Notes: generated by a model from the letters alone, not told the origin. 64,000 nucleotides of DNA from a virus (IMGVR_UViG_3300007609_000010:18492-82491), one strand, 5' to 3'. Positions 25,180 through 54,558 are shown, counted from the first letter of the stretch. Made by a program: numbers and translations.

Positions 25180-25189
25180 GGAATAGTTT

Positions 25190-27832: not shown

Positions 27833-28183
27833 ATGGACGAACGTCTATCAAAAGCGTTAGAGTTTGCAAACTACTCAGTCACAATTAATAATCAAAAAAG
27901 AATTCTAAAAGAAAAGTTTTTTGAAGATCTTGTATACTTTATTCAAGGAAGTCAATTCACAATTACCAAAGAACTAATTAACTTTGTGTCCTTTCTAGTG
28001 GAAAAAGGATACACCCAAGATATTGTGTTGGTCGACGACAATGATCTTCCTACATCAATTAAGGACCTAGAAGACTTTCAGGATAATATTCTTGATCAAT
28101 ATTTCCAAGCATCAAACACATACCACGAAAAGTATTTAGAATTATCAAAAAAAAGAAGCGTAGAGAAATTAGTAGATGAGTAA
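27833..28183 (+). CDS. Hypothetical protein, first gene of the enzyme island
   Basis: 116 aa, strong AGGAG RBS, overlaps the start of the next gene. Confidence 0.75.
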   Translation: MDERLSKALEFANYSVTINNQKRILKEKFFEDLVYFIQGSQFTITKELINFVSFLVEKGYTQDIVLVDDNDLPTSIKDLEDFQDNILDQYFQASNTYHEKYLELSKKRSVEKLVDE

Positions 28184-29021
28184 GGGTGTAGTCCTAATAG
28201 CTAATAATAATGGACATATAGACTACGTTAAGCAAGCAGTCTTTCTGTCACATCGAGTAAAACAATATTTAAATCTTCCTGTAACAGTTATTACAGACTC
28301 GCCAAATTATCTAAAAAATAATTTCGACACAGATCATCTCGACCAAATAATCACAATAGATTACAAAGAAACTACTAATAAGCGGTTCTACTTCGACGGA
28401 GCAATGTCGCATAAAACTCTACAATTTAAAAATCAATCAAGAACATTGTGTTACTTCCTGTCGCCCTATGATAAAACTTTGGTAATGGATACTGATTATA
28501 TTATATGCAATGACGTTTTGTTAAAATGTTTTGACAGCAACAGTGATTTAATGTTGTATAGAAAGTCTTACGATATATCTAACATTCGAGACACACATGA
28601 ATTTAAATATGTTAGTGATCAAAGCATAATATTTTATTGGGCTACAGTATTATATTTTACAAAAAACAGTAAGAATGATGCATTTTTTGGGTTAATTGAC
28701 CATATTCAAGAAGAATGGCATCATTATAGAAAAACATATCAAATTTCAAACTCGATGTTTAGAAATGATTTTGCATTCAGTATTGCTTTGCATATTATGA
28801 GAGGGTTTGAAAACAGCACAGAAATTGCCGACGAACTCCCAGGCAAACACTTCTATACCGCCGATAAAGATATTTTGTGGAAATTAAATGATGATAAAAT
28901 GATGTTCCTGGTAGAAAAGAAAGATTATGTTGGGGAATATACTCCAGTCTCGACCCAAGGTATGAACGTGCATGTTATGAATAAGTTTAGTTTAGAAAGA
29001 TGTATGGGGAACGTTAAATGA
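28176..29021 (+). CDS. Putative GT-A fold glycosyltransferase (GT8-like)
   Basis: 'DYVKQAVFL', 'SPYDKTLVMDTDY' (DxD), 'YWATVLYFTK', 'FRNDFAFSIA', 'HVMNK'. Confidence 0.65.
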   Translation: MSKGVVLIANNNGHIDYVKQAVFLSHRVKQYLNLPVTVITDSPNYLKNNFDTDHLDQIITIDYKETTNKRFYFDGAMSHKTLQFKNQSRTLCYFLSPYDKTLVMDTDYIICNDVLLKCFDSNSDLMLYRKSYDISNIRDTHEFKYVSDQSIIFYWATVLYFTKNSKNDAFFGLIDHIQEEWHHYRKTYQISNSMFRNDFAFSIALHIMRGFENSTEIADELPGKHFYTADKDILWKLNDDKMMFLVEKKDYVGEYTPVSTQGMNVHVMNKFSLERCMGNVK

Positions 29022-30433
29022 GTAGAGGTTTTTTGGTACTAGCACAAAATAGTGTTAACAAAGATTTCAACATTAAACCAGTGCATTACCTAAATGAAGA
29101 GTACACTGGAGTTTTTGTAGATGTTTGGTATAAAGAACTAGCACACACAAAAGGACAACATGTTTATTATAACGGAACTGTTTATAAAGTTAAGGAAACC
29201 TGTTTACCAAATACCGATTTTGACAAAAGTAAGTACGAAATATTAGTAAAAGACGTGAGACTTATTGATGATAAAAATAAACAGTTAGAATTTCATCGAG
29301 CATTCAAGGACGACATTGTACTAGATAATAATAAATTATATTCAGTACAAAAAGTAGATGACGAAGTTGATTACGCTCTTACTCCAATACATGAAGATAA
29401 ACACATTGATATTTGGTACAAAGACACAGAATATGAAAAAGGATCTTTTGTATGGTGCAATAACACTGTATATGAATTATTAGAATCTGTAAAGGGCGAT
29501 ACAGCACTTTCACAAGTTCACAAGAAAGTTGCGCATGAAAATATTTTGTTATATGCCGACAATAATAAATCCTTATTTTTTTCAGATCCGAGGAAAAGTG
29601 CAACAGTATTGTATTATAATAAATTAAATATTCTTACCCCAGTTTGTGTAGAAAACTACGTGCAACAAGCATGTCTTCTAGCCAGCACGTTAAAAAAACA
29701 TTGTCCCGAAGAAAAAATATCAATTGTTACAAATGACGAAGTTCCTCCTAAACAAAAAAAATTGTTTGATAGGATAATTCCTATCCCATTCGGTGACGAC
29801 GCAACTGAGTCTGCTTGGAAGGTCGAAAACAGATGGAAACTCTATCATTGTAGTCCGTACGAAAAAACCATAGTTATGGATTCAGATATGATAATATTAG
29901 AAGATATAACTAGGTGGTGGAAGTATTTAGAAAAGTATAAGTTATTCTTTACGTCTAACGTACAAACATATAGACAAGAAACTGTGCAAGATAATTATTA
30001 TAGAAAAACATTTATAAAAAATAATCTTCCTAACATTTATACTGGTTTGCATTATTTTGAAAAATCCGAGCTTCCAGAAAGATTTTATAACTATTTGGAG
30101 ACTGTTTGCAAGAATTGGGAAGAATTTTATTCTAAGTTCCTACCTAACAACACTCCTCCCAGATTGAGTATAGATGTTGCATCTGCACTAGTAGTAAAAA
30201 TACTAGATATAGAAAATCAAGTTACATCTACAAATTCAAATGTCACTTTTACACATATGAAGTCATTTGTGCAGAATTGGAGATCACCTACAGAAAGCTG
30301 GCAACAATCGGTATCTGTGTACATACCGGAAAATCTTCAGCTTAAAATAGGAAATTATGTGCAACGTGGGGTATTGCATTATACAGAAAATAGTTTTGTA
30401 AACAACAGCGGTATTGAAAATTTATATGGATAG
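29018..30433 (+). CDS. Putative GT8-like glycosyltransferase with a ~200-aa inserted tandem repeat
   Basis: 'ENRWKLYHCSPYEKTIVMDSDM' (DxD), 'FTHMK', 'LHYTE'; paralogue of 28176 with two CBM-like repeats inserted near the N-terminus. Confidence 0.7.
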   Translation: MSRGFLVLAQNSVNKDFNIKPVHYLNEEYTGVFVDVWYKELAHTKGQHVYYNGTVYKVKETCLPNTDFDKSKYEILVKDVRLIDDKNKQLEFHRAFKDDIVLDNNKLYSVQKVDDEVDYALTPIHEDKHIDIWYKDTEYEKGSFVWCNNTVYELLESVKGDTALSQVHKKVAHENILLYADNNKSLFFSDPRKSATVLYYNKLNILTPVCVENYVQQACLLASTLKKHCPEEKISIVTNDEVPPKQKKLFDRIIPIPFGDDATESAWKVENRWKLYHCSPYEKTIVMDSDMIILEDITRWWKYLEKYKLFFTSNVQTYRQETVQDNYYRKTFIKNNLPNIYTGLHYFEKSELPERFYNYLETVCKNWEEFYSKFLPNNTPPRLSIDVASALVVKILDIENQVTSTNSNVTFTHMKSFVQNWRSPTESWQQSVSVYIPENLQLKIGNYVQRGVLHYTENSFVNNSGIENLYG

Positions 30434-31373
30434 TCTTAAGTCGGTTCTTGAAACCATTAGTAAAAGCATTAATAAAACAAATATAAATTTTGTTTATTAT
30501 GATAACAACACTGGTGAAATAAAGCGTATCACAAATAACTATGAAGAAACTGATGATCTTGTTTGTATAGAAGTTCCGCATGATACTGTTAAAGATATAA
30601 TTACTGGATTACATAGAATCGAAGATTATGTTGTATCCTACGACAAGGAAACTAAAAGCGTATCTGTAAAACACAAAGACGTAATTAAAGACAAAGTAAA
30701 TTATTTCTTTCAAGTTCAAAAGCAGACAATCAATAAAAACGATTATGAAAGACACGTAAAAAACAAAGATAATGTGTATGATGGACAGATTCCTATCTAT
30801 CAGGATATATTTGTTGATGTTTGGTATAATGAACTTGAACATTATGCAGGACAACATGTTTGGTATAATAATTCTGTTTATAAAATTAAACAATATCAAG
30901 AAGCAAACACGGACTTTAAACGATCAAATGCTGATGTACTTTTAGAATACGTAAAACTCTTTAATGATAAAAATAATGATTTGTTTTTTGACAAAAACAT
31001 AGAAGGTGGTGATAAGTTCCTTTCTTTTAACAAGTTGTATCTATATAAACAAAGTCTTCTTGACACCGATGTTGACATGTTAATTATTCAGCATTTACAA
31101 GATTCAAAATGGAAAATATTTTTGTCTGAAAAAGTATTCAAAACATTGAAAGAGTTATATCGATCTGAAAATAGCTATGAGATGAAGTTGAGTATAACAG
31201 CTAATAATGATCCGAATATTCTTTATAGGAGTTTAGAACTAAATGTAAACGACTTGATAGTTTCAAAAATAGTCGAAATACCATTCGAATATGACTGGGA
31301 AAAGAATGGAAAAAGTGTAAGTATATTTGTTGACAAATATTTTGATTCGTACTTCTATGGAGTTGTTCAGTGA
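30426..31373 (+). CDS. Hypothetical protein carrying one copy of the CBM-like repeat
   Basis: Likely start is ATG 30426, overlapping the upstream stop. 'VDVWYNELEHYAGQHVWYNNSVYKIK' matches the repeats in 29018. Confidence 0.65.
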   Translation: MDSLKSVLETISKSINKTNINFVYYDNNTGEIKRITNNYEETDDLVCIEVPHDTVKDIITGLHRIEDYVVSYDKETKSVSVKHKDVIKDKVNYFFQVQKQTINKNDYERHVKNKDNVYDGQIPIYQDIFVDVWYNELEHYAGQHVWYNNSVYKIKQYQEANTDFKRSNADVLLEYVKLFNDKNNDLFFDKNIEGGDKFLSFNKLYLYKQSLLDTDVDMLIIQHLQDSKWKIFLSEKVFKTLKELYRSENSYEMKLSITANNDPNILYRSLELNVNDLIVSKIVEIPFEYDWEKNGKSVSIFVDKYFDSYFYGVVQ

Positions 31374-32281
31374 GTGATAAAAAATTTAGAGTTGTAGATT
31401 ACGATATTATCTATCTTAGCTACGACGAGCCTAACGCAGAAAAAAACTATGCAGATCTGTTAACAAAAGTTCCATGGGCTAAAAGAATTCACGGAGTGAA
31501 AGGAAGTGACGCTGCACATAAAGCCTGTGCAGAAATATCAGAAACAGACAGGTTTATCACAGTAGATGGAGATAACATAGTACATGCTGATTTCTTAAAT
31601 GTTGAACTAGATTTCAGCGAGAACGAATATCTTGAAAAAGCTGTGATTTCTTGGTGCGGCAAAAATATCATTAATGATCTAATGTACGGTAACGGTGGAC
31701 TAAAATGCTGGCCTAGAGAATATGTACTCAGCATGCGTACACATGAAAATGCCGACCCTGATAACGCACACGCTCAAGTTGATTTCTGTTGGGATGTAGA
31801 GTACATTCAAATGAACGAATGTTTTTCTACAGTTTACAATAATGCTACGTCTCAGCAAGCATGGAGAGCAGGATTTCGTGAAGGTGTAAAAATGGCATTA
31901 AATCAGGGAGTAAAGCCCACAGTAGAGGAGTTTTACGAAAATCACTGGAGATGTTTACACTGGTTATATATTTGGATGATGGTAGGCTCGGACGTAGAGC
32001 ACGGTGATTGGGCAAATCTTGGTGCACGAGCAGGACTTTACAAGACAATGTGCACTGATTGGAATTATGTTCAGGTTAGAGATTTTGACTATTTAAACAA
32101 TCTATGGGACGAAGAATTTGTAGATTTTGAAGGTCATGAAGTGTACGACGAGAGTTGTAATTATACAAAATTACTTTCTCAAAACCTAAATATTCCTGTA
32201 GCGGATCCTCTATCCGCAGGACAAAGTAAATTTTTCAAAAGTGTTTATAAAAGTCCGCCTAGAATAGATAAAGGATTATAA
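31370..32281 (+). CDS. Putative GT-A fold glycosyltransferase/nucleotide-diphospho-sugar transferase
   Basis: 'YLSYDEPNA', 'FITVDGDN' (DxD), 'YGNGGLK', 'AWRAGFREG'; GTGA overlap with the upstream stop. Confidence 0.6.
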   Translation: MSDKKFRVVDYDIIYLSYDEPNAEKNYADLLTKVPWAKRIHGVKGSDAAHKACAEISETDRFITVDGDNIVHADFLNVELDFSENEYLEKAVISWCGKNIINDLMYGNGGLKCWPREYVLSMRTHENADPDNAHAQVDFCWDVEYIQMNECFSTVYNNATSQQAWRAGFREGVKMALNQGVKPTVEEFYENHWRCLHWLYIWMMVGSDVEHGDWANLGARAGLYKTMCTDWNYVQVRDFDYLNNLWDEEFVDFEGHEVYDESCNYTKLLSQNLNIPVADPLSAGQSKFFKSVYKSPPRIDKGL

Positions 32282-33702: not shown

Positions 33703-35065
33703 TATAAAAAAAACTAGAGATCGATTAAACGACATTGGCCCGGGTATGTGTGCTATGAAGTGGTTACACGAAACACTATATCTGCACACTGGTGACAATC
33801 ACAGTTGCTATCATCCTAGACCCCATCATATTCCTGTGCACGAAGTCAAGGCCAATCCAAGTGCCCTTCATAATACTGAATGGAAAAAACAACAAAGAAA
33901 AATAATGTTGGAAGGCGGCCGGCCAGACGAATGTTACTATTGCTGGAATATTGAAGATTTAGAAGGTGAACATATATCAGATAGAATGATTCATAGTTCG
34001 AGTAATTTTGCAGTTAATGAAATCGAAAAACTAGGCAAAATGTCTTGGGACAAGGATATAAATCCTAAATATTTAGAAATTAGTTTTGGAAACGGGTGTA
34101 ATTATCGTTGCGGGTATTGTTGTCCCCAAGCTAGTACACTATGGATGGATGAAATTCAAAAGCATGGAAATTATGACTTGTCTTATAATCAATATGGCAT
34201 TGAATTCTTAGAAAGCGGCACGTATTATGGGCCCAAAGATGATAATCCTTACATAGAAGCTTTCTGGAAGTGGTGGCCAGATTTGCGTAAAGATTTATGG
34301 ACTTTACGAATCACAGGGGGAGAGCCTTTAATGAATCCAGGAGCAATGCAGTTTTTTGATCTGTTAGAAGACGAGCCTGCCCCTCAGCTAGAAATAAGTA
34401 TAAATTCAAACCTTGGTGTAACTGAAAATAAAGTCAGTAAGATGTATGATAGAGTAGAAAGTTTATTAGATCAAAAAAAGATTAAAAGTTTCAGTATGTT
34501 TACCAGTATCGAAGGGTGGGGCCCCCAGGCTGAGTATATGCGTACTGGATTACAATGTGACCACTGGGAAAAGAATTTTAAGCAAGCATTAGATAGAGGA
34601 TTCAAGGTTGGTATAATGTGTACTTTTAATGTGCTATGCGTTGCTACATATACAAATTTTTTGAATAGAGTAATTCACTGGCGGAAAGAACTCCTAGAGC
34701 AAGGCAAGGAACGGCTTCTGCAAATTGATATACCGTATCTAAAAGAACCTCCTCATTGGATGTTAAATATTTTACCGCAAGATTTTTTAGAAGAACACAT
34801 GGATAACAATTTACAGTTCATAATCGATCACAAAGAATTTTTTGCCGATGTAGAATTAGAAAAAATGCGCAGAGTAAGGGATTACGCATTTCAAAATCCT
34901 ATCTCCCAGGATAAGATATTGCAAGGAAGAAGAGATTTCTACAAATTCTTTTCAGAAAATGATCGCAGGTTAGATACAAACTTGTTAGAAACTTTTCCAG
35001 AATACACAGAATTTTATAACAGTTGCAAAGAATTAAATGAAAATGTTATAGCCCGAACAGTATGA
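33686..35065 (+). CDS. Radical SAM protein with N-terminal twitch-like domain (paralogue of 32281)
   Basis: CNYRCGYC, TGGEP; MC...SCYH...ECYYCW; shared ALHNT and NPY..AFW.W.P motifs. Confidence 0.9.
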   Translation: MQNVDNIKKTRDRLNDIGPGMCAMKWLHETLYLHTGDNHSCYHPRPHHIPVHEVKANPSALHNTEWKKQQRKIMLEGGRPDECYYCWNIEDLEGEHISDRMIHSSSNFAVNEIEKLGKMSWDKDINPKYLEISFGNGCNYRCGYCCPQASTLWMDEIQKHGNYDLSYNQYGIEFLESGTYYGPKDDNPYIEAFWKWWPDLRKDLWTLRITGGEPLMNPGAMQFFDLLEDEPAPQLEISINSNLGVTENKVSKMYDRVESLLDQKKIKSFSMFTSIEGWGPQAEYMRTGLQCDHWEKNFKQALDRGFKVGIMCTFNVLCVATYTNFLNRVIHWRKELLEQGKERLLQIDIPYLKEPPHWMLNILPQDFLEEHMDNNLQFIIDHKEFFADVELEKMRRVRDYAFQNPISQDKILQGRRDFYKFFSENDRRLDTNLLETFPEYTEFYNSCKELNENVIARTV

Positions 35066-35904
35066 AACAAATTAAAAAAATTATAGTAGGAGGTGATAGC
35101 TTTACAGCCGGCGACGAACTAGACGGAGATTTGCACATTCCGGGATATTCTGCAATAGTAAAAGATGGAGCAAACGAAAATGAAAGAAAAAATGCTTGGC
35201 AAAGATATAAGGAAAAGTTAAAAAAACTTTCTCGAGATGATAGTTTTAAGTATGATGATATTAGAAAAAACCGCGCTTGGCCAGCAATACTTTCCAAAAA
35301 AATAGGAATTACTGTTGAGAATACAGCCTCTCCTGGAGCATCTAATCAGGATATTTGTCACAGAATTCTTATGACAGTTATAAGAGAGCTTAATAAAGGC
35401 ACACCGTCAACTGAGTTAGCTTGTTTAATTATGATTACTCATCCATTGAGGTTCGGAGCACCTATTTCTCAAGATGCTGATTGGTCAAATGAATATAATT
35501 ACGAAACAATTCATTTTAATGGGTTAGAAAAACAAAGGAAAGAAAAGGCACAATTTGGAAAATATGTGTTAACTCACTATGATTATTATGATCTATTCTG
35601 GCATAGCTATTGCCACATACAAGGATTAAAAGGATTCTTAGATGCTCATAAAATTCCTGTGATGTTTTTTGACAGTAGTTTGTGGTCATGGGGAATTAAA
35701 GATCAAAGTACATATCATACTAACGATGAGAGACACGGATTAACTCATCTATGTGGAAATATTATAAATCCTAAGTTTAGACTCTCTGATCACAATATCA
35801 AACATCATGGGTTACCTGGTGGGCACTTTGTAGAAAAAGTTCATGAGTACTTTGCTAATAGATTACACAAGGAGCTATTTAATGGTATACGAAACTCTTC
35901 CTAA
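35062..35904 (+). CDS. SGNH/GDSL-like hydrolase or acyltransferase
   Basis: IIVGGDSFTAG (block I), AWP, N.ASPGASN (block II), C-terminal GGHF....H...A. Confidence 0.6.
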   Translation: MKQIKKIIVGGDSFTAGDELDGDLHIPGYSAIVKDGANENERKNAWQRYKEKLKKLSRDDSFKYDDIRKNRAWPAILSKKIGITVENTASPGASNQDICHRILMTVIRELNKGTPSTELACLIMITHPLRFGAPISQDADWSNEYNYETIHFNGLEKQRKEKAQFGKYVLTHYDYYDLFWHSYCHIQGLKGFLDAHKIPVMFFDSSLWSWGIKDQSTYHTNDERHGLTHLCGNIINPKFRLSDHNIKHHGLPGGHFVEKVHEYFANRLHKELFNGIRNSS

Positions 35905-36676
35905 AATAGAAACTCACAGCAATCTTTTTTTCACATACAAGCATTCAACTGAAAGTTTAGGTATAGCAGAATTTTCTAAGAATGATTTTAACTACAGATC
36001 TTTTGATTATTTGCCTAAAACTGTTGAAAATTTCTTCACCACAGGTATGCATTTACCTAATTACTTAGATATTATGGATAACGACCCAACAAAGTGGAGA
36101 GCAAATATTGAAAATTATGTAAAATTGGTATGGCTTGCTCGTGAATATATACAGGCTGATTATATATTTAAAAATCCTATTGGTGCTATATATAATCCGC
36201 CTAAGCAGATTTGGGAGATCCATCCCGGCGGATCTAGACAAATTGTTTATAAACTTTTTGGCCCTGATACTATCCTCGCTCTAGCCTTCAATACTAAAGG
36301 CAAATCTTGCCAATTTAAAAAAACATTTTCTAGCGAAGAGGAACTAAATGAATATTTTCCAAATACCGGCATATTTTTGGTAGTTTGTGCCGAGTGGGGA
36401 AGCTTAATACCCCATGTACATTTTGACCAAGGAAGGCTTACCAACAGTGTAAGAAAAGAATCCAAGCGAATTATTGATTTTTGGCAAACTACTAATGTGC
36501 AAGGAAACGTACCCGATTGGGTTTTAAAAAATAATAACAAAAATAAATCCAAAACATTAAAATTAAATTTAAAAAACCCAGATGATTTTGAAAATATCCT
36601 AAAAGGGTTAGTTTTATTGCCGAATTATGATTACTATAACGACCATGGAGTAAAAATTACAAATGTCGGTGCCTAA
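35882..36676 (+). CDS. Hypothetical protein (weak ParB/Srx-like motif)
   Basis: Start ATG 35882 follows an AAGGAG RBS; motif 'NPIG...WEIHPGGSR'. Confidence 0.6.
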   Translation: MVYETLPKIETHSNLFFTYKHSTESLGIAEFSKNDFNYRSFDYLPKTVENFFTTGMHLPNYLDIMDNDPTKWRANIENYVKLVWLAREYIQADYIFKNPIGAIYNPPKQIWEIHPGGSRQIVYKLFGPDTILALAFNTKGKSCQFKKTFSSEEELNEYFPNTGIFLVVCAEWGSLIPHVHFDQGRLTNSVRKESKRIIDFWQTTNVQGNVPDWVLKNNNKNKSKTLKLNLKNPDDFENILKGLVLLPNYDYYNDHGVKITNVGA

Positions 36677-37637: not shown

Positions 37638-37641
37638 TTGT

Positions 37642-46289: not shown

Positions 46290-46989
46290 TGCCCCACTCT
46301 CTTTCTTTGCACCAGAAGCATTCTCCGCAAGTAGGAACAATTTGTCCAGGTGTATATGTTGTATAATCTAAGTCGTTGAATATATGTGGATAATCTATCT
46401 TATCACCTTCGCAACTTCTAGTTAAAGCCAACAACCCTTCAATTTTTAAATTATAATATTGTTTAATGATCCAATCTTTCATTATGTGTACAAAGGGATG
46501 ATAGACAGATATCCCCATGTGTGTCATTGCGGGAGAAACATGTCCTTGATTACGATCTTCTAATGCACCGGGAATATCTATACTAGGATTTTTGTTTATA
46601 GCCGCAAACCAAGCATCAAGATTATACTTGTGTCCGATATATTCGTTAAAACTTCTTAAAATTATTTGGTTGCCGCTTTTCAATTTGCCGTACTCGTCAA
46701 TTATATTTGGACCATTTCTACCCCATTCTAGATCTGGAGGTATAAAATTTTTTTCTACATATTTTATGTTACTGAACTTAGATTGCAAATAACTAATTAC
46801 AGTGTCCGCTACATATTCTTGCCACGGCCGGGTCTTCCAACATCTAATTTGATTTGTTATAATTATATCAGCATCAGTATTACTGCATATTAAATAAGCT
46901 AGTAATGCAGAATCGGCCCCGCCGCTTACACTGATTCCTATACGGCTCCATTTTGAATGTATAGGTATTTCGACTTGGTCTATCAGCAT
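46270..46989 (-). CDS. QueC-like PP-loop ATP pyrophosphatase (adenine nucleotide alpha-hydrolase)
   Basis: ISVSGGADS PP-loop; HPF...K; C-terminal TRSC...CGECFWCKER zinc motif. Start ATG 46989. Confidence 0.75.
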   Translation of the reverse strand: MLIDQVEIPIHSKWSRIGISVSGGADSALLAYLICSNTDADIIITNQIRCWKTRPWQEYVADTVISYLQSKFSNIKYVEKNFIPPDLEWGRNGPNIIDEYGKLKSGNQIILRSFNEYIGHKYNLDAWFAAINKNPSIDIPGALEDRNQGHVSPAMTHMGISVYHPFVHIMKDWIIKQYYNLKIEGLLALTRSCEGDKIDYPHIFNDLDYTTYTPGQIVPTCGECFWCKEREWGIEQATK

Positions 46990-46994
46990 AAAAT

Positions 46995-47038
46995 TATTTA
47001 CCAATACAATTTTTTGTCTGTTAACGAACTGATAAATA
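46995..47038. promoter_or_regulatory. Divergent pair of late-like promoter motifs
   Basis: GTAAATA on the minus strand (47001-46995), 5 nt before ATG 46989; ATAAATA on the plus strand (47032-47038), 4 nt before ATG 47043. Confidence 0.6.
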
Positions 47039-47042
47039 GTAT

Positions 47043-47726
47043 ATGCTAACAAAGACTTCCTGTTCAGTAAATAACAAAAATATTCAAGATTGTTACAAAT
47101 ATATTTTAACACAGTATCCATACATTAACTATGACGATAAAATAAAAATGATTCTAAATGAGCCTAGTGGAGATTTCTTCTATGACAAGTGGAACCTAAA
47201 AAGAGAATACAAGGATACTCCACTTGAAAAATTATACAATAGTTTAGAAGGTAGAAAAGGTGAAGCACGCATTATTATAATGCAACCCGGCGACTGTTAT
47301 ATGGCACATAGTGATATTGACAACCGCTGGCATATGAACTTATCAGGTGAGCAGTGTTTTTTAATAGATTTAAATTTACACAACATGTATGAATTGGTAA
47401 AGGATGCAAGTTGGTGGTATATGGATGCCGGAGTTGTACATACTGCTGTAAATTTTGGAGATCATGCAAGAATGCAGCTAGTAGTGCGCGAGTTATTAAA
47501 GAGTAGCAACACAGCTTCCGTTTTTGTATCTATAACCACTCAGGTTGTAAATGGAAGATATATTTTTGATAAGAATATAAGTCCATTCTTGAATTCAGCA
47601 AACAAAGCAGGAAAAATTTCAAATTTCAAATTTGATGGAAGCACTGCTTCGTTTAAGTTGTGCGAAAGTCTACTTGGAAATTTTAAGACGCTTAACTTAG
47701 AAAACATGGTGGTAACATATGAATAA
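47043..47726 (+). CDS. 2OG-Fe(II) oxygenase, aspartyl/asparaginyl beta-hydroxylase-like
   Basis: ARIIIMQPG...AHSD (HxD)...HTAVNFG..ARMQLVV (distal His and Arg). Confidence 0.75.
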   Translation: MLTKTSCSVNNKNIQDCYKYILTQYPYINYDDKIKMILNEPSGDFFYDKWNLKREYKDTPLEKLYNSLEGRKGEARIIIMQPGDCYMAHSDIDNRWHMNLSGEQCFLIDLNLHNMYELVKDASWWYMDAGVVHTAVNFGDHARMQLVVRELLKSSNTASVFVSITTQVVNGRYIFDKNISPFLNSANKAGKISNFKFDGSTASFKLCESLLGNFKTLNLENMVVTYE

Positions 47727-48276
47727 AGAAAAGTTTTTCAAATATGACACAGAAGGGCGTTATGCAAATGCTAATGATGTATACGATGCATATTATGATA
47801 GTACCATTTATACAATGTATTTTAAATCTGAATATTGGTTTCGGCGTGAGCTTTTGGGTATAGAAATGTTGAAAAATAAACCCTATGCTCCGCAAATTAC
47901 TGAAGTGGACGAAGAACAACGATTAGTTTCTTTAGCATATGAAGACAATCTTAATCATATGATACATTTTAACAGATTGCCAAAAAACTATAAACAAAAA
48001 ATTTTAGAAATTAAAAAAGATTTAGAAGATAATGGAATTTACAAACTTAATTTTTATCCTCACACATTTTTCTATAAAAATGAAGATTTTTTTCTTATAG
48101 ACAATTATGCAATTGCTCACGGCGAAGAAAAAATACTTAAAGCAGATATTGAATCTACTATTCACGATAAAGAAAGATTTCCTTTTGTAGGAAATTATTT
48201 GGATATCGTTAAATCGTATAATATTGCCATCCAAAAAAATGTTGGCAATTGGCCGGAAAATTTTATTTGTGGCTGA
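47719..48276 (+). CDS. Degenerate protein-kinase-like fold protein
   Basis: 'FRRELLGIEML...APQI', 'GIYKLNFYPHTFF...FLIDNY' align with kinase alphaC, catalytic-loop and DFG regions; paralogue of 53310. Confidence 0.45.
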   Translation: MNKEKFFKYDTEGRYANANDVYDAYYDSTIYTMYFKSEYWFRRELLGIEMLKNKPYAPQITEVDEEQRLVSLAYEDNLNHMIHFNRLPKNYKQKILEIKKDLEDNGIYKLNFYPHTFFYKNEDFFLIDNYAIAHGEEKILKADIESTIHDKERFPFVGNYLDIVKSYNIAIQKNVGNWPENFICG

Positions 48277-48823
48277 TTATATTGGTAATTGTTCCGAAAT
48301 TATAGATTGGGATAAAGTAGTCCAACAGATTACAAATACAGAGCCGTCTTATGTTGGTCCTACACATGATGTAAACACAGCTAATGTAGAAGGAGCATAT
48401 AATGTTGCCTCTGCGATAAGGTCCGCCGGACACTGCCTATTGTCAGAAGGCGGAAGCATGGGCTGGGGAATGTATTTTCCGGGTAAAGATTTTGAAATGA
48501 CGGTTTTAACCCAATTCTGTAAATATGTTGGACTAGAGGAGTCTTATTTCTGTTGGATCAGCAGCATTAAACCTGGTCATATGGCGCCTTGGCATTGGGA
48601 TATCACCGACGAATATCGGACTATAGGCGAAACAAAAACTGTTCAAAGATTTCATTGTCATATTACAGATCCTCAGCCCGGGCATTTTTTTGTAGTAGAT
48701 GATCATTGCTTTTACAATGAATATAAAGGTGCAATATATAAATGGCCAGAACGATCCAGTTGGCATGCAGGGTCAAATGCCGGTCTATCAACAAAATTTT
48801 TGTTTAATGTTTGGGGAATATAA
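48269..48823 (+). CDS. 2OG-Fe(II) oxygenase-like (cupin) protein
   Basis: WISSIKPGHMAPWHWD (HxD), WHAGSNAG; probable GTG start at 48269. Confidence 0.7.
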   Translation: MADYIGNCSEIIDWDKVVQQITNTEPSYVGPTHDVNTANVEGAYNVASAIRSAGHCLLSEGGSMGWGMYFPGKDFEMTVLTQFCKYVGLEESYFCWISSIKPGHMAPWHWDITDEYRTIGETKTVQRFHCHITDPQPGHFFVVDDHCFYNEYKGAIYKWPERSSWHAGSNAGLSTKFLFNVWGI

Positions 48824-49341
48824 TGAATATAGTTTTAACTGGAGCTACTAGTCCTATAGGCAAAATGTTATACGATCATTATAAAGTTATTTATAATGTA
48901 ACTCCTATAAGCAGATTATATGGCTGGGATTTATATAAAGAAGAGCAACAGGATAGGTTAGTTCAATTAACAAATTCTGCAGATGTTTTTTTGAATATTG
49001 CTCATCTTGGATTTGTCCAAAGTTTCTTATTGGAAAGAAGTAAGGCAAAAATCAATATAAGTTTTGGCAGTTTAATAACAAAGTTTTCCTGGAATCAAAT
49101 GAAATATTATGGCACTCATGAATATATTGCTCATAAGCTTTTTTTAGAATATGTGCATTCTTCAATAAAGAACAGTGCGATAATCAACGTTTCAAAGTTT
49201 GGCCAAGGTTCTAACAATATTCCCGAAGTTGAAGCAGATCAAATAATCTATGCGGTTAACGATATTATTACTAGACGGGCATTTTTGCCAAAGGTTTACG
49301 AAATTACCAATGGCGGAGTGCCCGGACTAGAGCGTGTTTAA
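48823..49341 (+). CDS. Small NAD(P)-binding Rossmann/SDR-like protein
   Basis: IVLTGATSPIG, DVFLNIA, INISFGS, YIAHK (YxxxK); TAATG coupling to the upstream gene. Confidence 0.65.
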   Translation: MNIVLTGATSPIGKMLYDHYKVIYNVTPISRLYGWDLYKEEQQDRLVQLTNSADVFLNIAHLGFVQSFLLERSKAKINISFGSLITKFSWNQMKYYGTHEYIAHKLFLEYVHSSIKNSAIINVSKFGQGSNNIPEVEADQIIYAVNDIITRRAFLPKVYEITNGGVPGLERV

Positions 49342-50586
49342 ATGTAAAAATAAAGATTTATAGTCTGTACCGCGAGTATTATCATAAAGTTTTAACACTC
49401 TTGATCTTTCTTCTACAACTTCTTTAAAATCCTCAGGAGGGTGTTTTATAAAGTTCTTTGTGCTTTTAAGATAATCATATAACTGATTGTTTTCTGCAAA
49501 AAGCTTACTAGATTCAAACTCCAAAACTACCCTTTCTACTAATATCTCTACTTGTTGTCTTAGCTCCGGTGAAAGGTATTGAAACGAAAAATATCTTGGT
49601 TCGTCTACATAATTTATTCTAACAGGAAGTTCTTTTTCTCTCTGTTTAGACCAAAACTCAAATTGTTGTAGAATTTCCTTCATGTCAAAAATATTAAAAA
49701 TGTTAAATGTAGCTGATATTTCTAAATCTATTTCTGTATCGTGTAATAGTTTGAAAAAATTATTTTCTACTTCGGTATATTTACAGGGGAATCTTATAAA
49801 GTTGAATTTTTCTTGTTCTATATGATCAATACTACATAAAAGTCTAAAATTTTTGAACTGTTTAGCCTTTTGTATATATTTAAAATCTGTTTGATAGAGG
49901 TTGGATATAATCTCTAAAGATATTGTTTTATGATGATTGTGTTCTATTGCAAGATCTAATATGTCATTGGTCAGCGGATTTATAAAAGGTTCCCCGCCTA
50001 CTATCTTAAGAAGTTTAAGATTGGGCATTATAGTTAGTAATCTATCTAACATTTTTTTCTGTTGAGATTTTTGATAACGATAAATCTGATCTTTATCTCG
50101 TACGTGTTCCTCTATGTAGTTTAGAGTCTGTGGAAGGTCTACTTGTTTTTGTCTAAAAAATACTAGTTCCGCTTCGTGTTGGGAACTTTCCATCTGCGTA
50201 CACATAATGCATTTGAGATTACATAGATTACCTATCTTAAACTCAAATGTTTCTGGAGTATAATCTAAATAACCGTCTTCGTCTGTTTTGTCTATCAGAG
50301 AAATAAGATAGTCTTCGTCGTAGCTTAGTACTTCTTTTTGTCTTGTAGAAATAAGACCTTGTTGCTCATTTTTCCAGCATCTTGCACAGTTAGGGTGTTG
50401 TATTCCGTTAATAAGATCTTTACGTAATCCTTTGTAAAAATCTCCATTCCAAACTTCGTCTGCATTATAATCTTCTGCCGAAACTCCGATACCTAAGCTT
50501 TCGCAACAGGTACGAAATGTGCCGCTGTTAGTTGTGCTAATATAGTTAAAAGGATATGGACAGATTGTGTCCTTTGAATATTTCAT
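49327..50586 (-). CDS. Radical SAM protein with N-terminal twitch-like domain
   Basis: ICPYPF...RTCC...NCARCW; CNLKCIMC; VGGEP; YDNTRGTD. Confidence 0.9.
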   Translation of the reverse strand: MKYSKDTICPYPFNYISTTNSGTFRTCCESLGIGVSAEDYNADEVWNGDFYKGLRKDLINGIQHPNCARCWKNEQQGLISTRQKEVLSYDEDYLISLIDKTDEDGYLDYTPETFEFKIGNLCNLKCIMCTQMESSQHEAELVFFRQKQVDLPQTLNYIEEHVRDKDQIYRYQKSQQKKMLDRLLTIMPNLKLLKIVGGEPFINPLTNDILDLAIEHNHHKTISLEIISNLYQTDFKYIQKAKQFKNFRLLCSIDHIEQEKFNFIRFPCKYTEVENNFFKLLHDTEIDLEISATFNIFNIFDMKEILQQFEFWSKQREKELPVRINYVDEPRYFSFQYLSPELRQQVEILVERVVLEFESSKLFAENNQLYDYLKSTKNFIKHPPEDFKEVVEERSRVLKLYDNTRGTDYKSLFLHLNTL

Positions 50587-51395
50587 TAGTAACTGTCTAA
50601 ATGATCTATACCTAAAGTTTTTCTAAACTCTGGAGTAAAGGTACAATCTATTCTTAAACCGTATTCTTGTTCTTTAGATCCTTCGCCTCCGTGCCAATCT
50701 TGATCATTCCAAAAAGCAGCATTACTGTTAATGTAGTATTTGTTTTCTTCTTCTGGATCCCAAATATAAAACCCTCTTTTTGTACGGTAGCGTATATGTA
50801 TAAACTCATTATTGTGCGGACTATAACCTTGGTCGTCGCCATGTCTGCCGTCTAGGTCCCTGTGCTCGAATGCATGTCCGTTATGATCACAATGGAAGAA
50901 TATAACACGCCCAATCCGATCAATAATACTTTCATCAATGAGATTTTCCACCCAGCGAACCACTCCTGGAAAATATTGTTGTTCTTCAGTTGGAGCTCTT
51001 TCAGCATTACGTTCGTCCCAGCTTCCTTCTTCCCAGAGGAAATAATAAATGTAAGGATCGTTTGCTCCTAATGCACCTTTCAGGTATCTTGTAAACATAT
51101 TTCTTTGACGATAGTCCTTAAAATCTTTGGGAAATATTTCCATTCCGTGAACTTTAATAGGGTTGTCGTCTGGTAACTCTTGGAATTCTGCAAATGCCTT
51201 ATATATAGGTTTCCAATTAACAATATAACTCATATCGTCAAAGTTAAATCCGGGAGTCATCCAAGTTCCTTCTTTGGCATATTCTCTAGCCAGTGCAAAT
51301 CCTTTGCAGATTTCTGGATGCAATTTTTGAAATCCATCTATATCCAAATATTGGTCTAAGTTTATGTAAGGCTTACCGCCGATACCTTTTATCAT
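50586..51395 (-). CDS. 2OG-Fe(II) oxygenase-like protein
   Basis: GRVIFF...EHRD (HxD)...DWHG...LRID; start ATG 51395. Confidence 0.65.
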   Translation of the reverse strand: MIKGIGGKPYINLDQYLDIDGFQKLHPEICKGFALAREYAKEGTWMTPGFNFDDMSYIVNWKPIYKAFAEFQELPDDNPIKVHGMEIFPKDFKDYRQRNMFTRYLKGALGANDPYIYYFLWEEGSWDERNAERAPTEEQQYFPGVVRWVENLIDESIIDRIGRVIFFHCDHNGHAFEHRDLDGRHGDDQGYSPHNNEFIHIRYRTKRGFYIWDPEEENKYYINSNAAFWNDQDWHGGEGSKEQEYGLRIDCTFTPEFRKTLGIDHLDSY

Positions 51396-51400
51396 AAAGA

Positions 51401-51450
51401 TATTTATCAACATCAGTATTACAAAGAATACATATGATAACAGTTAAGTA
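51401..51450. promoter_or_regulatory. Divergent pair of late-like promoter motifs
   Basis: ATAAATA on the minus strand (51407-51401), 5 nt before ATG 51395; variant TTAAGTA on the plus strand (51444-51450), 5 nt before ATG 51456. Confidence 0.55.
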
Positions 51451-51455
51451 CATAT

Positions 51456-52112
51456 ATGTTTAATGGCAGAGAATATCTTTTATCTACAGCTCGTTGTTTA
51501 AAGTTAAATATAGAAGTACCGCATGAAGTAATGGCAATAGAAGCAAAGCGGCTAAGAGAAAAGTTTGTACCTTATAGAAGCACATATGTTACAAGTGGCT
51601 GGCATAGTTTACCTATTATTGGAAAATCTAGCACAGAGCCGTATGCTTGGAACTGTTACGAAGAATATTCGTCAGCTAGAGATGCCGCCTTTGATATGGA
51701 ATATACAGAAATAGCAGACTTGTGTCCGGTAACAACAAACTGGTTAAAAACGGTATACCCTAGTAATAGCTATGCAAGAGTAAGATTTATGTTATTAGAA
51801 CCAGGTGGATATATAGAACCTCACATCGATACTACTCATAGTGTTCTCGGAGCAATCAATATTGCGCTAACAAACCCCCAAGACTGTGTTTGGCACTGGA
51901 AAGACGGATCTACGGTAAACTTCAATCCTGGCGATGCTTATGCAATGAATCTCAGCTACGAACACAGTGTAAAAAACAACAGTAACCAAGACAGATATCA
52001 TTTAATCGTGCATCATTACGACAGTACTGATGAATGGAAACAGTTAATGATAGATGCACTAGAGGAATCAAATGAACAAGGTCAGTTTCTTTTTAGTACC
52101 GAGCTTTTCTAG
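51456..52112 (+). CDS. 2OG-Fe(II) oxygenase, aspartyl/asparaginyl beta-hydroxylase-like
   Basis: GWHSL, CPVT, RVRFMLLEPGGYIEPHID (HxD), HSVKNNSNQDRYHLIVH. Confidence 0.85.
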   Translation: MFNGREYLLSTARCLKLNIEVPHEVMAIEAKRLREKFVPYRSTYVTSGWHSLPIIGKSSTEPYAWNCYEEYSSARDAAFDMEYTEIADLCPVTTNWLKTVYPSNSYARVRFMLLEPGGYIEPHIDTTHSVLGAINIALTNPQDCVWHWKDGSTVNFNPGDAYAMNLSYEHSVKNNSNQDRYHLIVHHYDSTDEWKQLMIDALEESNEQGQFLFSTELF

Positions 52113-53325
52113 CAGTAAATGGTTAAACGACAAAATGATGAGAATAACCAAAAGATTTTTGGCAACTCTCAATATGTCGGGTTATCCAGTACATGAAATA
52201 GCAGATTATCATGACCTAAATAAGTATTTAGAAATATACGATTATCTCATAGTAGTAACAGCAGGTAACATAATCATAGAACGAGATCATCTATGGAAAA
52301 AAATACACGAGATTGATGAGAATATTGGCCTCATGGGAAATCTATTGCAGCACGGTGACGAGACTCCGTGGATGCACGAACAGTTCTTTATTATAAACAC
52401 ACAAGCATTTACAAAGTTAGATTTTTCTACCGGCGAAACCAAAAGTTGGGAAATACTGCGAAGTACAGAAGACATGCATGACGGTCATGCTCCGTTGTAT
52501 TTTACCTTAGGCGAAAACAAAGTAACACGACAAGATGCCTTTGGAACCAAACTTATAGAACATTGTCTTCTAAATGGCTATAGTACCAGCAACTGGGATA
52601 TGGATTGGAGATATCCTCCGCACCTAAATGAATATATTTTAGATGTTAGGTTGCCTAGCAGAGGATTTTGTTATCCCACAAGAGCCACTAAGGCATTTGA
52701 ATATGCTTTAAAAAACATCACAATGGTGCCAGGACTAGACGAAGCGCAAAGTGTTTTAATGGATGCTCTTATTAAAGCCAAGCAGATGAATCTAATAAAT
52801 GTTTGGCATTATGAACAAGCAATATTAGACGAATCAGTAGATACAGTAATAGTTCCAGCTACAGGATTTTTAGCAGAAACATTTGCGTTAATAGGTAACG
52901 CAAAAAAAATTGTATTTTATGATAAAAACAAAAACAATATCCACTTTAAGAGAACCTTATATGAAGAATGGGACGGTATAGACTACGATGCTTTTGCTAA
53001 AGAATATGCTGATGTAAATAATCTCAGTACAGAGCCTGTGTTTGAAATAGATGCGGTTAGAGCAAAAAAACTTAGTACTATAATCACTGAACGAGTATTT
53101 ACAGACTGGGAAGACTGGAAAAATAGTAGAGAGTTTTTGTTTTTAGATTGTGATGTTATAACAGAAACTGATGTTTTGTTAAAACAAGCATGCGGTAGAA
53201 CAGTATTACAGACCAGCACAATATTTTCGGTATATCCCTGGACTGAAATATTTTACGAATCTAATGTTATAGAACAAGCAGAAGAAAAAATAAAGGAATC
53301 AAATGTCATATGGATACAAGCATAG
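52072..53325 (+). CDS. Hypothetical two-domain protein
   Basis: 417-aa ORF overlapping both neighbours. N-half motifs HEQFFIIN and RSTEDMHDGHAP; C-half Rossmann-like 'VIVPATG...IVFYD'. Confidence 0.6.
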   Translation: MNKVSFFLVPSFSSSKWLNDKMMRITKRFLATLNMSGYPVHEIADYHDLNKYLEIYDYLIVVTAGNIIIERDHLWKKIHEIDENIGLMGNLLQHGDETPWMHEQFFIINTQAFTKLDFSTGETKSWEILRSTEDMHDGHAPLYFTLGENKVTRQDAFGTKLIEHCLLNGYSTSNWDMDWRYPPHLNEYILDVRLPSRGFCYPTRATKAFEYALKNITMVPGLDEAQSVLMDALIKAKQMNLINVWHYEQAILDESVDTVIVPATGFLAETFALIGNAKKIVFYDKNKNNIHFKRTLYEEWDGIDYDAFAKEYADVNNLSTEPVFEIDAVRAKKLSTIITERVFTDWEDWKNSREFLFLDCDVITETDVLLKQACGRTVLQTSTIFSVYPWTEIFYESNVIEQAEEKIKESNVIWIQA

Positions 53326-54011
53326 ATTTTGAATATTACTACAATAATGTTCCTGAAAAAGGGTTATGTAGAAATAATCTAATATACACCAGTCTTGTTA
53401 ATAAAGACAAAACAATGTTTTGTAAATGGTACCACAATGATACACAATATCACCAAGGAATGAATGAAGTAGTTGACATTGCTAAGATGCAGGAAAAATG
53501 GGAGCGAGAGCTAAAGTATTTTACCATTATGCAAGAACATTATCCTCAGCATGTTCCGAACATTATAGAAATAGACAGAGAAAACAAAAAAATATTTTTC
53601 GAAATACAAGGTGCTGACATGTGGGAACAAGCAGGGTGTACAGGTTTAGATTATACTTCTGTGCTAAGAGACTGGCAAGATCAGATGCTAGAGATTTTAC
53701 AAGCACATAAAGATTTAGGCCTTTACAAATATAGTCTACATCCTAGTAGTTATTTTGTTGTAGATGGTAAGCTTAAAAGTATCAACTATTTTTTTACTTA
53801 CCATAAAAACGAGCAAAAAATAAATGTCAGAAGTCACTTAAGCCATATTAGTCATTCTAGAAGAGAAAAATTATTCCCCCAAATGGAAGCTATGGGTATT
53901 GACTTAGATGCTCCCCAGGAATGGAATAAGTTACAGATATTATGCTTTGAAAGTTTTTCTAATAATTATTCTAGAGATTTTATAGATAAGGCAGTATCAC
54001 TGTATGTATAA
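53310..54011 (+). CDS. Degenerate protein-kinase-like fold protein
   Basis: 'FCKWY', 'WERELKYF', 'VPNIIEID', 'GLYKYSLHPSSYFVVDGKLKSINYF'; paralogue of 47719. Confidence 0.5.
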   Translation: MDTSIDFEYYYNNVPEKGLCRNNLIYTSLVNKDKTMFCKWYHNDTQYHQGMNEVVDIAKMQEKWERELKYFTIMQEHYPQHVPNIIEIDRENKKIFFEIQGADMWEQAGCTGLDYTSVLRDWQDQMLEILQAHKDLGLYKYSLHPSSYFVVDGKLKSINYFFTYHKNEQKINVRSHLSHISHSRREKLFPQMEAMGIDLDAPQEWNKLQILCFESFSNNYSRDFIDKAVSLYV

Positions 54012-54558
54012 AATAATTCCTTTCTCTGATGATTTAGACCTAGAAATATTTTATCGAAAAGCTAAAGGAAAAGGATTTATTAATAATGCATCTAAACACA
54101 TGCTGGTAGACTGTTTCAAGAAAGAAAGGAAACATCAAACATGGATTCTATATTACAATAATAATCCTGTAGGATCAGTAGCCGCACATTCTTTTGACGA
54201 AATGGGAAAGAACAGTTATAGAATAGCCGCAAGAACCTGTGTACTAACAGATGAAATACCAACACCGACACTGAGAACTCGAAACCAAATAGTTACCCAA
54301 CAGCATGTTACTGGTCAATTTTTAATACCAGCATGCATAGAATGGGCAGGCAAGAAAAATAACTTATATATCACTTCAAATAACCTAGAAGGCGGAAGTC
54401 AACGATTGGTACACAATGTTTATTTTCCTGCAATGGTAAAGACTGGTCAAGCAGAAGAAATCTGCGAAATGGAGTATAGGGGTACTTGGCAAACAGTTTG
54501 GAAGTTAGATGTAAAAAAATTTTATCAAACGTTAAATGCCCATCCTAGATGGGCATAA
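54004..54558 (+). CDS. Putative GNAT-fold acyltransferase
   Basis: 184 aa; 'WILYYNNNPVGSVAAH...YRIAARTCV...LIPACIEWA...LYITSN' fits GNAT strand/helix order. Confidence 0.5.
   Translation: MYKIIPFSDDLDLEIFYRKAKGKGFINNASKHMLVDCFKKERKHQTWILYYNNNPVGSVAAHSFDEMGKNSYRIAARTCVLTDEIPTPTLRTRNQIVTQQHVTGQFLIPACIEWAGKKNNLYITSNNLEGGSQRLVHNVYFPAMVKTGQAEEICEMEYRGTWQTVWKLDVKKFYQTLNAHPRWA

Follow-up and report, generated by a model that had tools for sequence, protein, structure and literature searches.

The element described here is a gene island at positions 27833-54558 of a viral DNA sequence of 64,000 nucleotides (IMGVR_UViG_3300007609_000010:18492-82491; hereafter the window, with positions counted from its first letter). 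The window corresponds to the final 64 kb of a linear IMG/VR record 82.5 kb long, which has a CheckV completeness of 22%. A preliminary description of this DNA had proposed that about 30 overlapping or abutting genes, among them ten radical S-adenosylmethionine (rSAM) proteins and four GT-A-like glycosyltransferases, form a biosynthetic cluster carried by a virus, flanked by structural genes to the left and by a fibre gene to the right. The layout is as proposed: 30 open reading frames (ORFs) of at least 80 amino acids (aa) that overlap or abut tile the island, and their strands alternate over five blocks (27833-43363, +; 43347-47121, -; 47043-49341, +; 49327-51413, -; and 51456-54558, +), with baseplate wedge and fibre families matched on the left and Mtd_N on the right (Table 1). 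ORFs are named by their left coordinate. Membrane segments were found in none of the 30 proteins (19-residue Kyte-Doolittle window, threshold at least 1.6). The block is kept in all 38 of the related viral loci that span 14 kb or more and recurs in bacterial chromosomes, which upholds its description as a virus-borne biosynthetic cluster; as to what it does, we give slightly better than an even chance to a cytoplasmic pathway that builds, edits and transfers an unusual sugar.

Radical SAM enzymes and GT-A-like transferases

PF04055 is matched by ten of the 30 ORFs (nine above the gathering score of 29.5 bits, and 32281 below it at 25.7 bits). Each of the ten contains exactly one CxxxCxxC motif, in agreement with the earlier count, and a six-frame search of the entire 82.5-kb record returned the same ten intact genes and no more. 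All-against-all BLAST divides them into five long paralogues (419-473 aa; 32281, 33686, 40935, 45018 and 49327), three short proteins that we term family B (approximately 300-340 aa; 39346, 42341 and 43347) and two singletons (36663 and 38300). The long paralogues match NCBIfam NF033640 (N_Twi_rSAM) over their full length at 277-396 bits, against a cut-off of 170 and a maximum of 40 bits for the other five; NF033640 is a named family without a known reaction, and membership says nothing on function. In these paralogues invariant C30, C48, C105 and C108 precede C162, C166 and C169, and Pfam SPASM matches fall at residues 9-108 in three of them. The three family B proteins have four conserved C-terminal cysteines in common, and the invariant residues of their alignment (A7) are C36, C40, C43, C273, C314 and C319.

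For three of the island rSAMs, the closest characterized relatives act on sugar-like substrates. The nearest solved relative of 36663 is BtrN (4m7s; E 3.3e-11, 46 bits, phmmer against the PDB), and 38300 matches BlsE at E 3e-10 over residues 11-267, near its full length; its best NCBIfam match is also BlsE (TIGR04466), at 46.8 bits against an equivalog cut-off of 400. By sequence, then, 36663 and 38300 are relatives of BtrN and BlsE that lie below equivalog membership. For 39346, an AlphaFold2 model (pLDDT 86.2) has BlsE as its top fold match (E 1.3e-8, TM-score 0.55), followed by MoaA. Nine of the ten rSAMs are predicted to carry an auxiliary-cluster domain, as judged from the N-terminal cysteines of five, the C-terminal cysteines of three and the SPASM match of 36663. 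These four-cysteine domains presumably resemble the fully ligated cluster of BtrN, and by that analogy such a cluster would fit redox-type sugar chemistry.

Four proteins had been described as GT-A-like with a DxD motif, and all four stand, two of them weakly. The pair 31370 and 37642 belongs to one family, A1 (the second was listed from 37402, which is too far upstream because homologues are 221-225 aa long, and its start was moved to 37642). A profile search of the PDB with A1 gave no match. The AlphaFold2 model built from 27 sequences has a pLDDT of 90.3, and its best PDB matches in Foldseek are all GT-A proteins (WrtF, E 4e-5; GtrB; PBCV-1 A64R; and ppGalNAc-transferases); VIA-align superimposes it on B4GALNT1 (Z 11.6, root mean square deviation 2.7 over 134 residues), and D57 and D59, the DxD pair, are invariant in the 27 sequences. 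On the evidence of the model, the A1 proteins are predicted to have the GT-A fold, nucleotide-sugar-binding and Rossmann-like. The other two, 28176 and 29018, have no Pfam GT8 match; a profile (A6) of 28176, residues 213-471 of 29018 and four homologues matches glycogenin-1 (GT8) weakly, at E 4.5e-4 and over profile positions 15-116 only, with glycogenin accounting for 19 of the 21 listed PDB matches and D105 and D107 invariant in the six sequences. Beyond the window, metagenomes contain 1488 proteins of 553-2000 aa that reach E 1e-10 or better against the A1 profile (229 positions). Their scores, near 600 bits, imply several A1 domains in tandem; A1 is also matched by two BFVD models, of 804 and 1076 aa, at a TM-score of 0.86.

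Table 1. Positions of the island genes and their flanks in the window, and orthologue counts in related viral loci
Feature	Position	Strand	Basis	Loci with orthologue (of 38)
Baseplate wedge protein, left flank	70..4404	+	phrog_10646, E 5e-176	
4769-aa ORF, presumed virion protein, left flank	4418..18727	+	C-terminus of neighbour matches giant virion-protein PHROGs	
Five fibre-like genes, left flank	19367..27778	+	tail-fibre PHROGs for 19367, 21713, 23650	
116-aa acidic protein, no Cys	27833..28183	+	no Pfam or PHROG match; 57% homologue on contig PBPT01000082.1	
GT8-like GT-A glycosyltransferase (weak)	28176..29021	+	profile A6	0
GT8-like domain, residues 213-471, after about 200 aa of repeats	29018..30433	+	paralogue of 28176 and 30414; profile A6	1
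Repeat-bearing protein	30414..31373	+	35% identity to 29018 repeats; no family above cut-off	0
GT-A-like transferase, A1 family	31370..32281	+	35% identity to 37642-38313	17
rSAM, N-terminal twitch, NF033640	32281..33702	+	319 bits; CNLKCAYC at residue 151	
rSAM, N-terminal twitch, NF033640	33686..35065	+	296.5 bits; 34% identity to 32281	8
SGNH/GDSL-like, motif only	35062..35904	+	N-terminal GDS motif; no family match	0
277-aa protein	35843..36676	+	no family match	0
rSAM with C-terminal SPASM/twitch	36663..37637	+	PF04055 46 bits; PF13186 43.7 bits	4
GT-A-like transferase, A1 family, core gene	37642..38313	+	AlphaFold2 model, GT-A fold	35
rSAM, BlsE-like	38300..39349	+	sole PDB matches BlsE 7vob/7voc	22
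rSAM family B with C-terminal 4-Cys domain, core gene	39346..40350	+	PF04055; A7 alignment	37
200-aa Rossmann-like protein, possible methyltransferase, core gene	40340..40942	+	ESM Atlas lead only	38
rSAM, N-terminal twitch, NF033640, most conserved gene	40935..42344	+	395.8 bits	
rSAM family B	42341..43363	+	PF04055 43.1 bits; A7 member	
rSAM family B, core gene	43347..44240	-	PF04055 48.3 bits	37
282-aa protein, presence/absence variant	44228..45076	-		7
rSAM, N-terminal twitch, NF033640, core gene	45018..46340	-	328.6 bits	35
PP-loop ATPase with QueC-like Cys-rich C-terminus, core gene	46270..47121	-	SGGADS motif	33
Asp/Asn-hydroxylase-like 2-oxoglutarate oxygenase, borderline	47043..47726	+	PF05118 20.7 bits against cut-off 22.6; invariant H89, D91, H133	20
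Small kinase-fold protein	47719..48276	+	joint profile A5	
Cupin/oxygenase-like, motif only	48224..48823	+	invariant H124, D126, H181; no family match	
SDR-like, motif only	48811..49341	+	N-terminal TGxxxxIG-type and YxxxK motifs; no family match	
rSAM, N-terminal twitch, NF033640	49327..50586	-	276.7 bits	
275-aa conserved protein, possible Asp/Asn-hydroxylase-like oxygenase	50586..51413	-	ESM Atlas 0.96 to viral PF05118 cluster	
Asp/Asn beta-hydroxylase family 2-oxoglutarate oxygenase	51456..52112	+	PF05118 E 8.2e-16, 58.7 bits	
417-aa protein	52072..53325	+	no match	
Small kinase-fold protein	53310..54011	+	joint profile A5	
184-aa protein, GNAT by motif only	54004..54558	+	FeeM at E 0.076 only	
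Fibre protein, right flank	54561..57293	-	Mtd_N PF18454, E 3.5e-11	
Large HNH endonuclease	58894..60216	-	phrog_1314, E 6e-117	
ATPase	60298..61383		51% identical to PA5oct-like phage counterpart	

Conservation in viruses and bacteria

We scanned IMG/VR with the 40935 protein, confirmed 121 viral contigs and kept 80, in which this protein is 82-93% identical; the 38 loci of at least 14 kb were then analyzed, an orthologue being called where tblastn gave a gene its best non-overlapping match with at least 40% identity. The counts (Table 1) range from a core (40340, 39346, 43347, 37642, 45018 and 46270) through 38300 and 47043 to the left arm, in which 31370, 33686 and 36663 recur in some loci and 28176, 29018, 30414, 35062 and 35843 in one at most; the island is composed of a variable left arm and a conserved core of seven genes (37642, 39346, 40340, 40935, 43347, 45018 and 46270). 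The gene set is clustered in 38 of the 38 loci; its order is often rearranged while the set is kept together, and the comparison across related phages that the preliminary description had called for therefore returned conserved clustering and no scattering of homologues. The loci contain 5-12 rSAM-like genes each (median 7), and longer related records contain 7-11 clustered rSAM genes in five of five cases. The right-flank fibre gene (as partial homologues) and its two neighbours adjoin the cassette in six related loci, and in two other records the wedge gene precedes the island by approximately 22-25 kb. The iron-sulphur A-type carrier family PF01521 was found in none of five related viral contigs, which are fragments and lend this little weight.

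One of the two records with an upstream wedge gene, contig PBPT01000082.1 (153 kb), is filed in a metagenome-assembled genome (MAG) of Candidatus Neomarinimicrobiota and is syntenic with window positions 25190-35065 at 31-67% protein identity. Because of this left-arm synteny and a wedge gene approximately 22 kb upstream, we take it to be a phage contig mis-binned into a bacterial MAG; a second contig of the same MAG contains the same wedge sequence.

Of three bacterial phyla sampled, one yielded A1 counterparts. In a sample of 301 genomes from the Bdellovibrionota (the phylum to which a Bacteriovoracaceae MAG belongs), 20 have a match to the A1 profile, with E values from 1e-60 to 1e-76 and the matches often paired in tandem; samples of 301 genomes each from the phyla of a gammaproteobacterial MAG and of a Microcoleus genome gave none. 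In six Bdellovibrionota loci (40 kb around the A1 match, on contigs of 0.1-2.9 Mb), A1 is accompanied within 40 kb by at least one N-terminal-twitch rSAM in all six, by homologues of 40340 and 38300 in four, by 39346 (49-51% identity) and 40935 (45-46%) in three, and by 46270 in two; two of these blocks have more than a dozen rSAM genes each. Glycosyltransferases of family GT2 (PF00535) were located in five genomes: two have them in the block itself, a third has them no more than 2.5 kb from it, a fourth at 3.7 kb, and the fifth next to a second copy of A1. An NAD-epimerase/dehydratase gene is part of one block. By our reading of the sequences, three blocks contain a GT2 protein with C-terminal membrane segments and an FAD-oxidoreductase-like gene (a label that rests on an N-terminal dinucleotide-binding motif), and two have a seven-transmembrane protein. 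The proteins flanking the island in the window have no homologue in the six bacterial blocks (blastp, E 1e-3), and the matches of the right-flank fibre protein, in 4 of 301 genomes, are short, weak and all away from the cassette. On these sequence data, the occurrence of A1 in Bdellovibrionota and in neither of the other two phyla could reflect gene exchange with predatory bacteria, or these bacteria could be the hosts of the phages.

Among other bacterial N-terminal-twitch rSAMs, one from Acidobacteriota has as neighbours transporter genes of the ABC-2 and ABC types, together with five genes for GT2 enzymes and a single GT4 gene. Gammaproteobacteria and Bacteriovoracaceae MAGs each have a lone rSAM of this type one or two genes from an aldehyde dehydrogenase gene (PF00171), an arrangement that may be due to chance or to a second functional context.

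A candidate sugar-editing pathway and its alternatives

What we observe is the gene content, the conservation of the block, its position among fibre genes and its co-occurrence in bacteria with glycosyltransferases; the reactions, substrates and acceptor that follow are all what we infer from them. BtrN, BlsE and MoaA act on sugar-like or nucleotide substrates. A sugar pathway is favoured because the rSAMs include relatives of BtrN and BlsE, because there are four GT-A-like genes and GT2 neighbours in bacteria, and because no RRE or precursor was found; the first three of these points also bear out the glycan building and tailoring that had been proposed, as the best-supported chemistry. In such a pathway the sugar would most likely be handled as a nucleotide-activated sugar or a short glycan. 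Twitch-type rSAMs would each abstract a hydrogen from a sugar carbon, resulting in oxidation, epimerization, deoxygenation or decarboxylation at different positions (compare BtrN and BlsE); the PP-loop ATPase could adenylate a carboxyl or carbonyl group (for example, to give an amide or amidine), the 2-oxoglutarate oxygenases would hydroxylate, 40340 may methylate and the kinase-fold proteins may phosphorylate. The GT-A enzymes (two of the uncharacterized A1 family and two GT8-like) would then transfer the product to an acceptor. Given a sugar product, our judgement places virion (fibre) proteins foremost as acceptor, at somewhat less than an even chance, then the host envelope, itself a serious candidate, and then some other acceptor, which is less likely and still far from negligible. 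The position among fibre genes and the all-soluble protein set fit virion, host-surface and soluble-product readings alike.

Several results weigh against this sugar pathway. Pfam scans of the 30 ORFs recognized no nucleotidyltransferase, 4,6-dehydratase or aminotransferase, and 15 of the 30 have no Pfam match even at E 5. The fold match of A1 is limited to residues 1-136 and also fits nucleotidyltransferases such as IspD, and the fold list of 39346 includes CteB, anSME, EpeE and PqqE at TM-scores of 0.47-0.52, nearly equal to that of BlsE. Characterized PF05118 members hydroxylate protein residues or lipid A, and the kinase-fold profile (A5, from 53310 and 47719) leads to protein kinases (E 7.8e-6). 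In bacteria, every match to Wzx (PF01943) or Wzy_C (PF04932) in the five Bdellovibrionota genomes is distant from the cassette, and three of the four other N-terminal-twitch contexts are not glycan loci.

Some of these results would be expected if the island modified proteins directly, that is, if rSAMs and Asp/Asn-hydroxylase-like oxygenases cross-linked, epimerized or hydroxylated virion proteins (for example, fibres) or a peptide, which a GT-A enzyme then glycosylated. SPASM/twitch rSAMs include many peptide maturases, and the 39346 model matches five of them (CteB, anSME, EpeE, PqqE and SkfB) at E 1e-6 to 4e-5; one solid PF05118 oxygenase is accompanied by up to three candidates, the kinase-fold profile points to protein kinases, all island proteins are soluble, and the island lies among fibre genes both here and in related contigs. 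We nevertheless consider direct protein modification unlikely. Pfam and NCBIfam scans of the 30 ORFs found no PqqD/RRE or precursor-like family, and the rSAMs have neither room for nor sign of an RRE, because the CxxxCxxC motif is near the N-terminus (it begins at residues 17-36 in four of the five short proteins) or a Cys-rich twitch domain is there instead. No conserved small precursor ORF was noticed (ORFs below 80 aa were outside the systematic scan), and there is little room for one because the genes abut. The island rSAMs score far below the cut-off of every equivalog model, those for peptide maturases giving approximately 40 bits or less against 300-650, whereas BtrN and BlsE are the best sequence-level relatives; and the bacterial block sits with GT2 genes, without homologues of the proteins that flank the island in the window.

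The kinship with BtrN and BlsE, which come from antibiotic pathways, could also be read as a sign of a soluble small molecule, a nucleoside-, aminocyclitol- or sugar-derived metabolite made in the manner of blasticidin or aminoglycosides, left unattached and used for host takeover or against competitors or host defences. Family B has weak matches to viperin and MoaA, which are nucleotide-acting enzymes, the set of PP-loop, kinase-fold, acyltransferase-like and possible methyltransferase genes looks like a toolkit for tailoring, and the island is without a membrane or export protein; in addition, the accessible portion of a paper on cyanophage S-SCSM2R (PMC12801897) lists an rSAM maturase, with 'antibiotic synthesis' genes, beside glycosyltransferases. 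Against this, no scaffold-forming enzyme was recognized, four transferase-like GT-A genes and tandem multi-domain A1 relatives suggest the building of a polymer or conjugate, and the GT2 proteins with membrane segments and seven-transmembrane proteins that adjoin three Bdellovibrionota blocks point to an envelope-attached product there; a free metabolite is therefore, in our estimation, just as improbable as direct protein modification. Less probable still is hypermodification of DNA or nucleotides, in which a base, for example of the 7-deazaguanine type or one bearing a sugar, would be produced by a QueC-like PP-loop protein together with a QueE-like rSAM and extended by the glycosyltransferases. 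It would account for the weak QueC match of 46270 and the weak QueE-type matches of three rSAMs, and phage pathways of this kind can include rSAMs, as the available part of one report describes (PMC8989533), but neither model comes near its cut-off (17.5 against 22 bits for QueC, and 19-29 against 260 bits for QueE). FolE, QueD, DpdA/TGT and hydroxymethylase families were not found on the island ORFs (the record being a genome fragment), the block lies within the structural module rather than the replication module, and its bacterial counterpart adjoins GT2 and multi-membrane-segment proteins.

Returning to the sugar pathway, virus-encoded glycosylation of virion proteins is known from chlorovirus PBCV-1, with its A64R, and from mycobacteriophage capsid and tail systems. 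The island is similar in having soluble viral GT-A enzymes near structural genes, and A64R (2p72/2p6w) matches the A1 model at E 3e-4; this match is one of fold only (TM-score 0.32-0.35), and we know of no rSAM enzymes in the chlorovirus and mycobacteriophage systems. Phage Gtr systems (GtrA, GtrB and GtrC) consist of membrane proteins whose sugar transfer alters the host O-antigen; phage-borne sugar transfer is the common element, and GtrB is among the A1 fold matches, but the 30 island proteins have no membrane segment. With BtrN and BlsE, and likewise DesII and MoaA, the island rSAMs share an rSAM core and one auxiliary four-cysteine cluster domain; they differ in that the auxiliary domain is N-terminal in five of the ten, and the partner genes of butirosin and blasticidin synthesis are not present in the island.

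Published phage islands offer a parallel in position. The accessible portion of Zaragoza-Solas et al. (2020; PMC7029224) describes the host recognition cluster (HRC) of pelagimyophages and cyanomyophages as a large non-syntenic island in the structural module, located between VrlC and gp14 in T4-like SAR11 phages of approximately 150 kb; an Asp/Asn beta-hydroxylase is common in phages with an HRC, host O-chain modification is proposed, and rSAM cassettes in marine myophage fibre islands are mentioned in passing without, in that portion, being analyzed. Here too a variable island with fibre genes and glycosyltransferases is found in the structural module, although the nearest cultured relatives of the present virus are jumbo phages. 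A T4-like environmental viral genome, TARA_ERS488813_N000010, has 12 rSAM genes, given as a count in the context of iron-sulphur cluster assembly in the part of Nishimura et al. (2017; PMC5332604) available to us; the two are alike, by description only, as marine myophages with an exceptional number of rSAMs. Our literature searches found no paper that analyzes the cassette or its product. No characterized pathway matches the island, as the preliminary description had concluded and as the equivalog scores confirm, and in the portions of the literature cited here such cassettes are noticed only in passing.

If the sugar pathway is correct, phages and predatory bacteria would share an unstudied route to heavily edited sugars by means of an rSAM battery. 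Given the place of the island in the host-recognition region, the product could bear on host range, superinfection exclusion or virion masking. A bolder proposal, and one that we hold to be decidedly doubtful, is that the core (A1, 40340, 38300, 39346 and 40935) is a previously undescribed rSAM glycan-editing pathway in which a single sugar would be altered at more than one carbon by a series of twitch rSAMs; it would have been exchanged between salt-water jumbo phages and predatory Bdellovibrionota and would decorate tail fibres in the former and the predator surface in the latter, the structures with which each recognizes the cell it attacks, with strain-level swapping of the variable arm serving to retune or mask recognition; a bolder corollary still would be that the phages infect Bdellovibrionota. 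The N-terminal-twitch rSAMs (4209 metagenomic proteins match the profile at E 1e-5 or better), the family B rSAMs and the A1 GT-A family are abundant in metagenomes and have no known reaction. The conserved five-to-seven-gene core is a defined expression target for enzymologists. The island could also be used as a marker of strain-level variation in abundant uncultured phages.

Lineage, flanks and remaining genes

Among jumbo phages, Phosso, Atu_ph07 and SCTP-2 have wedge proteins 31-32% identical to that of the window (tblastn), with Rak2-like phages also among the jumbo myophage relatives; the nearest cultured relatives are jumbo phages at 31-51% identity. The wedge relatives, the PA5oct-like ATPase and the CheckV estimate together suggest, from sequence comparison, a jumbo phage that shares T4-type baseplate genes; the phage is an uncultured one from salt water and probably giant. 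A public run labelled soil metagenome (X1) contains the stretch without differences and may be the sample of origin, and a second (X2), labelled saltern metagenome, contains long near-identical pieces; two others (X3 and X4) contain pieces that are short and only 85-95% alike, and for this reason no habitat was drawn from them. No RNA data set is among the public runs listed as carrying the stretch. A megablast search of 20 kb of the island against GenBank phages gave no match, and tblastn found one record for 36663 (Kyanoviridae phage C48C1, 44.5% identity, annotated as hypothetical) and five for 40935, each below 25% identity.

Within the left flank, the fibre-like genes with a PHROG assignment span 19367-25179; the last two (25190 and 26315) are paralogues of each other (30% identity) with no family match. 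The repeats of 29018 and 30414 (29054-31047), for which CBM_5_12 matches 29018 at E 0.088 only, were considered as relatives of the 4769-aa protein (4418-18727) and this was set aside: the best BLAST match (E 0.008 over 91 residues) is unconvincing, and a motif expression for the repeats finds zero copies in that protein. A late-promoter candidate was likewise rejected, exact TATAAATA being seen three times against eight expected, and sigma-70-like and terminator-like sites occur at shuffle level.

For the remaining island genes, family searches gave few names: 5 of the 20 non-rSAM ORFs have any PHROG match at E 0.01 or better (QueC-like being the sole relevant name), and in a scan of 10 non-rSAM ORFs with NCBIfam no score came near a cut-off. 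The reported PP-loop ATPase is clear from SGGxDS in 46270; in 24 sequences of its family S64, S66, G67, G68, D70 and S71 are invariant or nearly so, and C265, C268 and C271 are invariant. Its QueC match is C-terminal and below the cut-off given above (phrog_1550, E 2.3e-5), TilS and NAD synthase matches are weak, and a profile (A3) finds only PP-loop proteins in the PDB, at E of about 0.3-0.8. The start of 46270 on the minus strand is probably further inside the ORF, since homologues are 225-270 aa long and an internal start would remove the 79-nucleotide overlap with 47043.

Other functions in the preliminary description fared unevenly. The two kinase-like proteins are supported by the A5 profile. 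Among the four HxD...H oxygenases, 51456 is solid (with a weak LpxO match as well) and 47043 falls just under its cut-off, whereas 50586 is a language-model lead with no Pfam or PDB match (including by profile A4) and 48224 shows the motif only; common descent of the four was not borne out, hhalign to the 51456 family giving E 0.31 for 50586, 0.055 for 48224 and 0.026 for 47043, with probabilities of 2% or less. The methyltransferase assignment of 40340, a gene that overlaps the start of 40935, likewise retains a language-model lead, with no match in Pfam, PHROGs or the PDB (profile A11 included). For the SGNH (35062), SDR (48811) and GNAT (54004) proteins the motifs are seen in the translations, and the family matches are lacking.

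The 44228-45076 gene varies at strain level: in a contig from saltern run X2, position 44226 is followed by 10 other letters and then by 45022. The window continues for 9.4 kb past the island, where the large HNH endonuclease gene lies just past the right-flank fibre gene, a place that it also occupies in three related loci.

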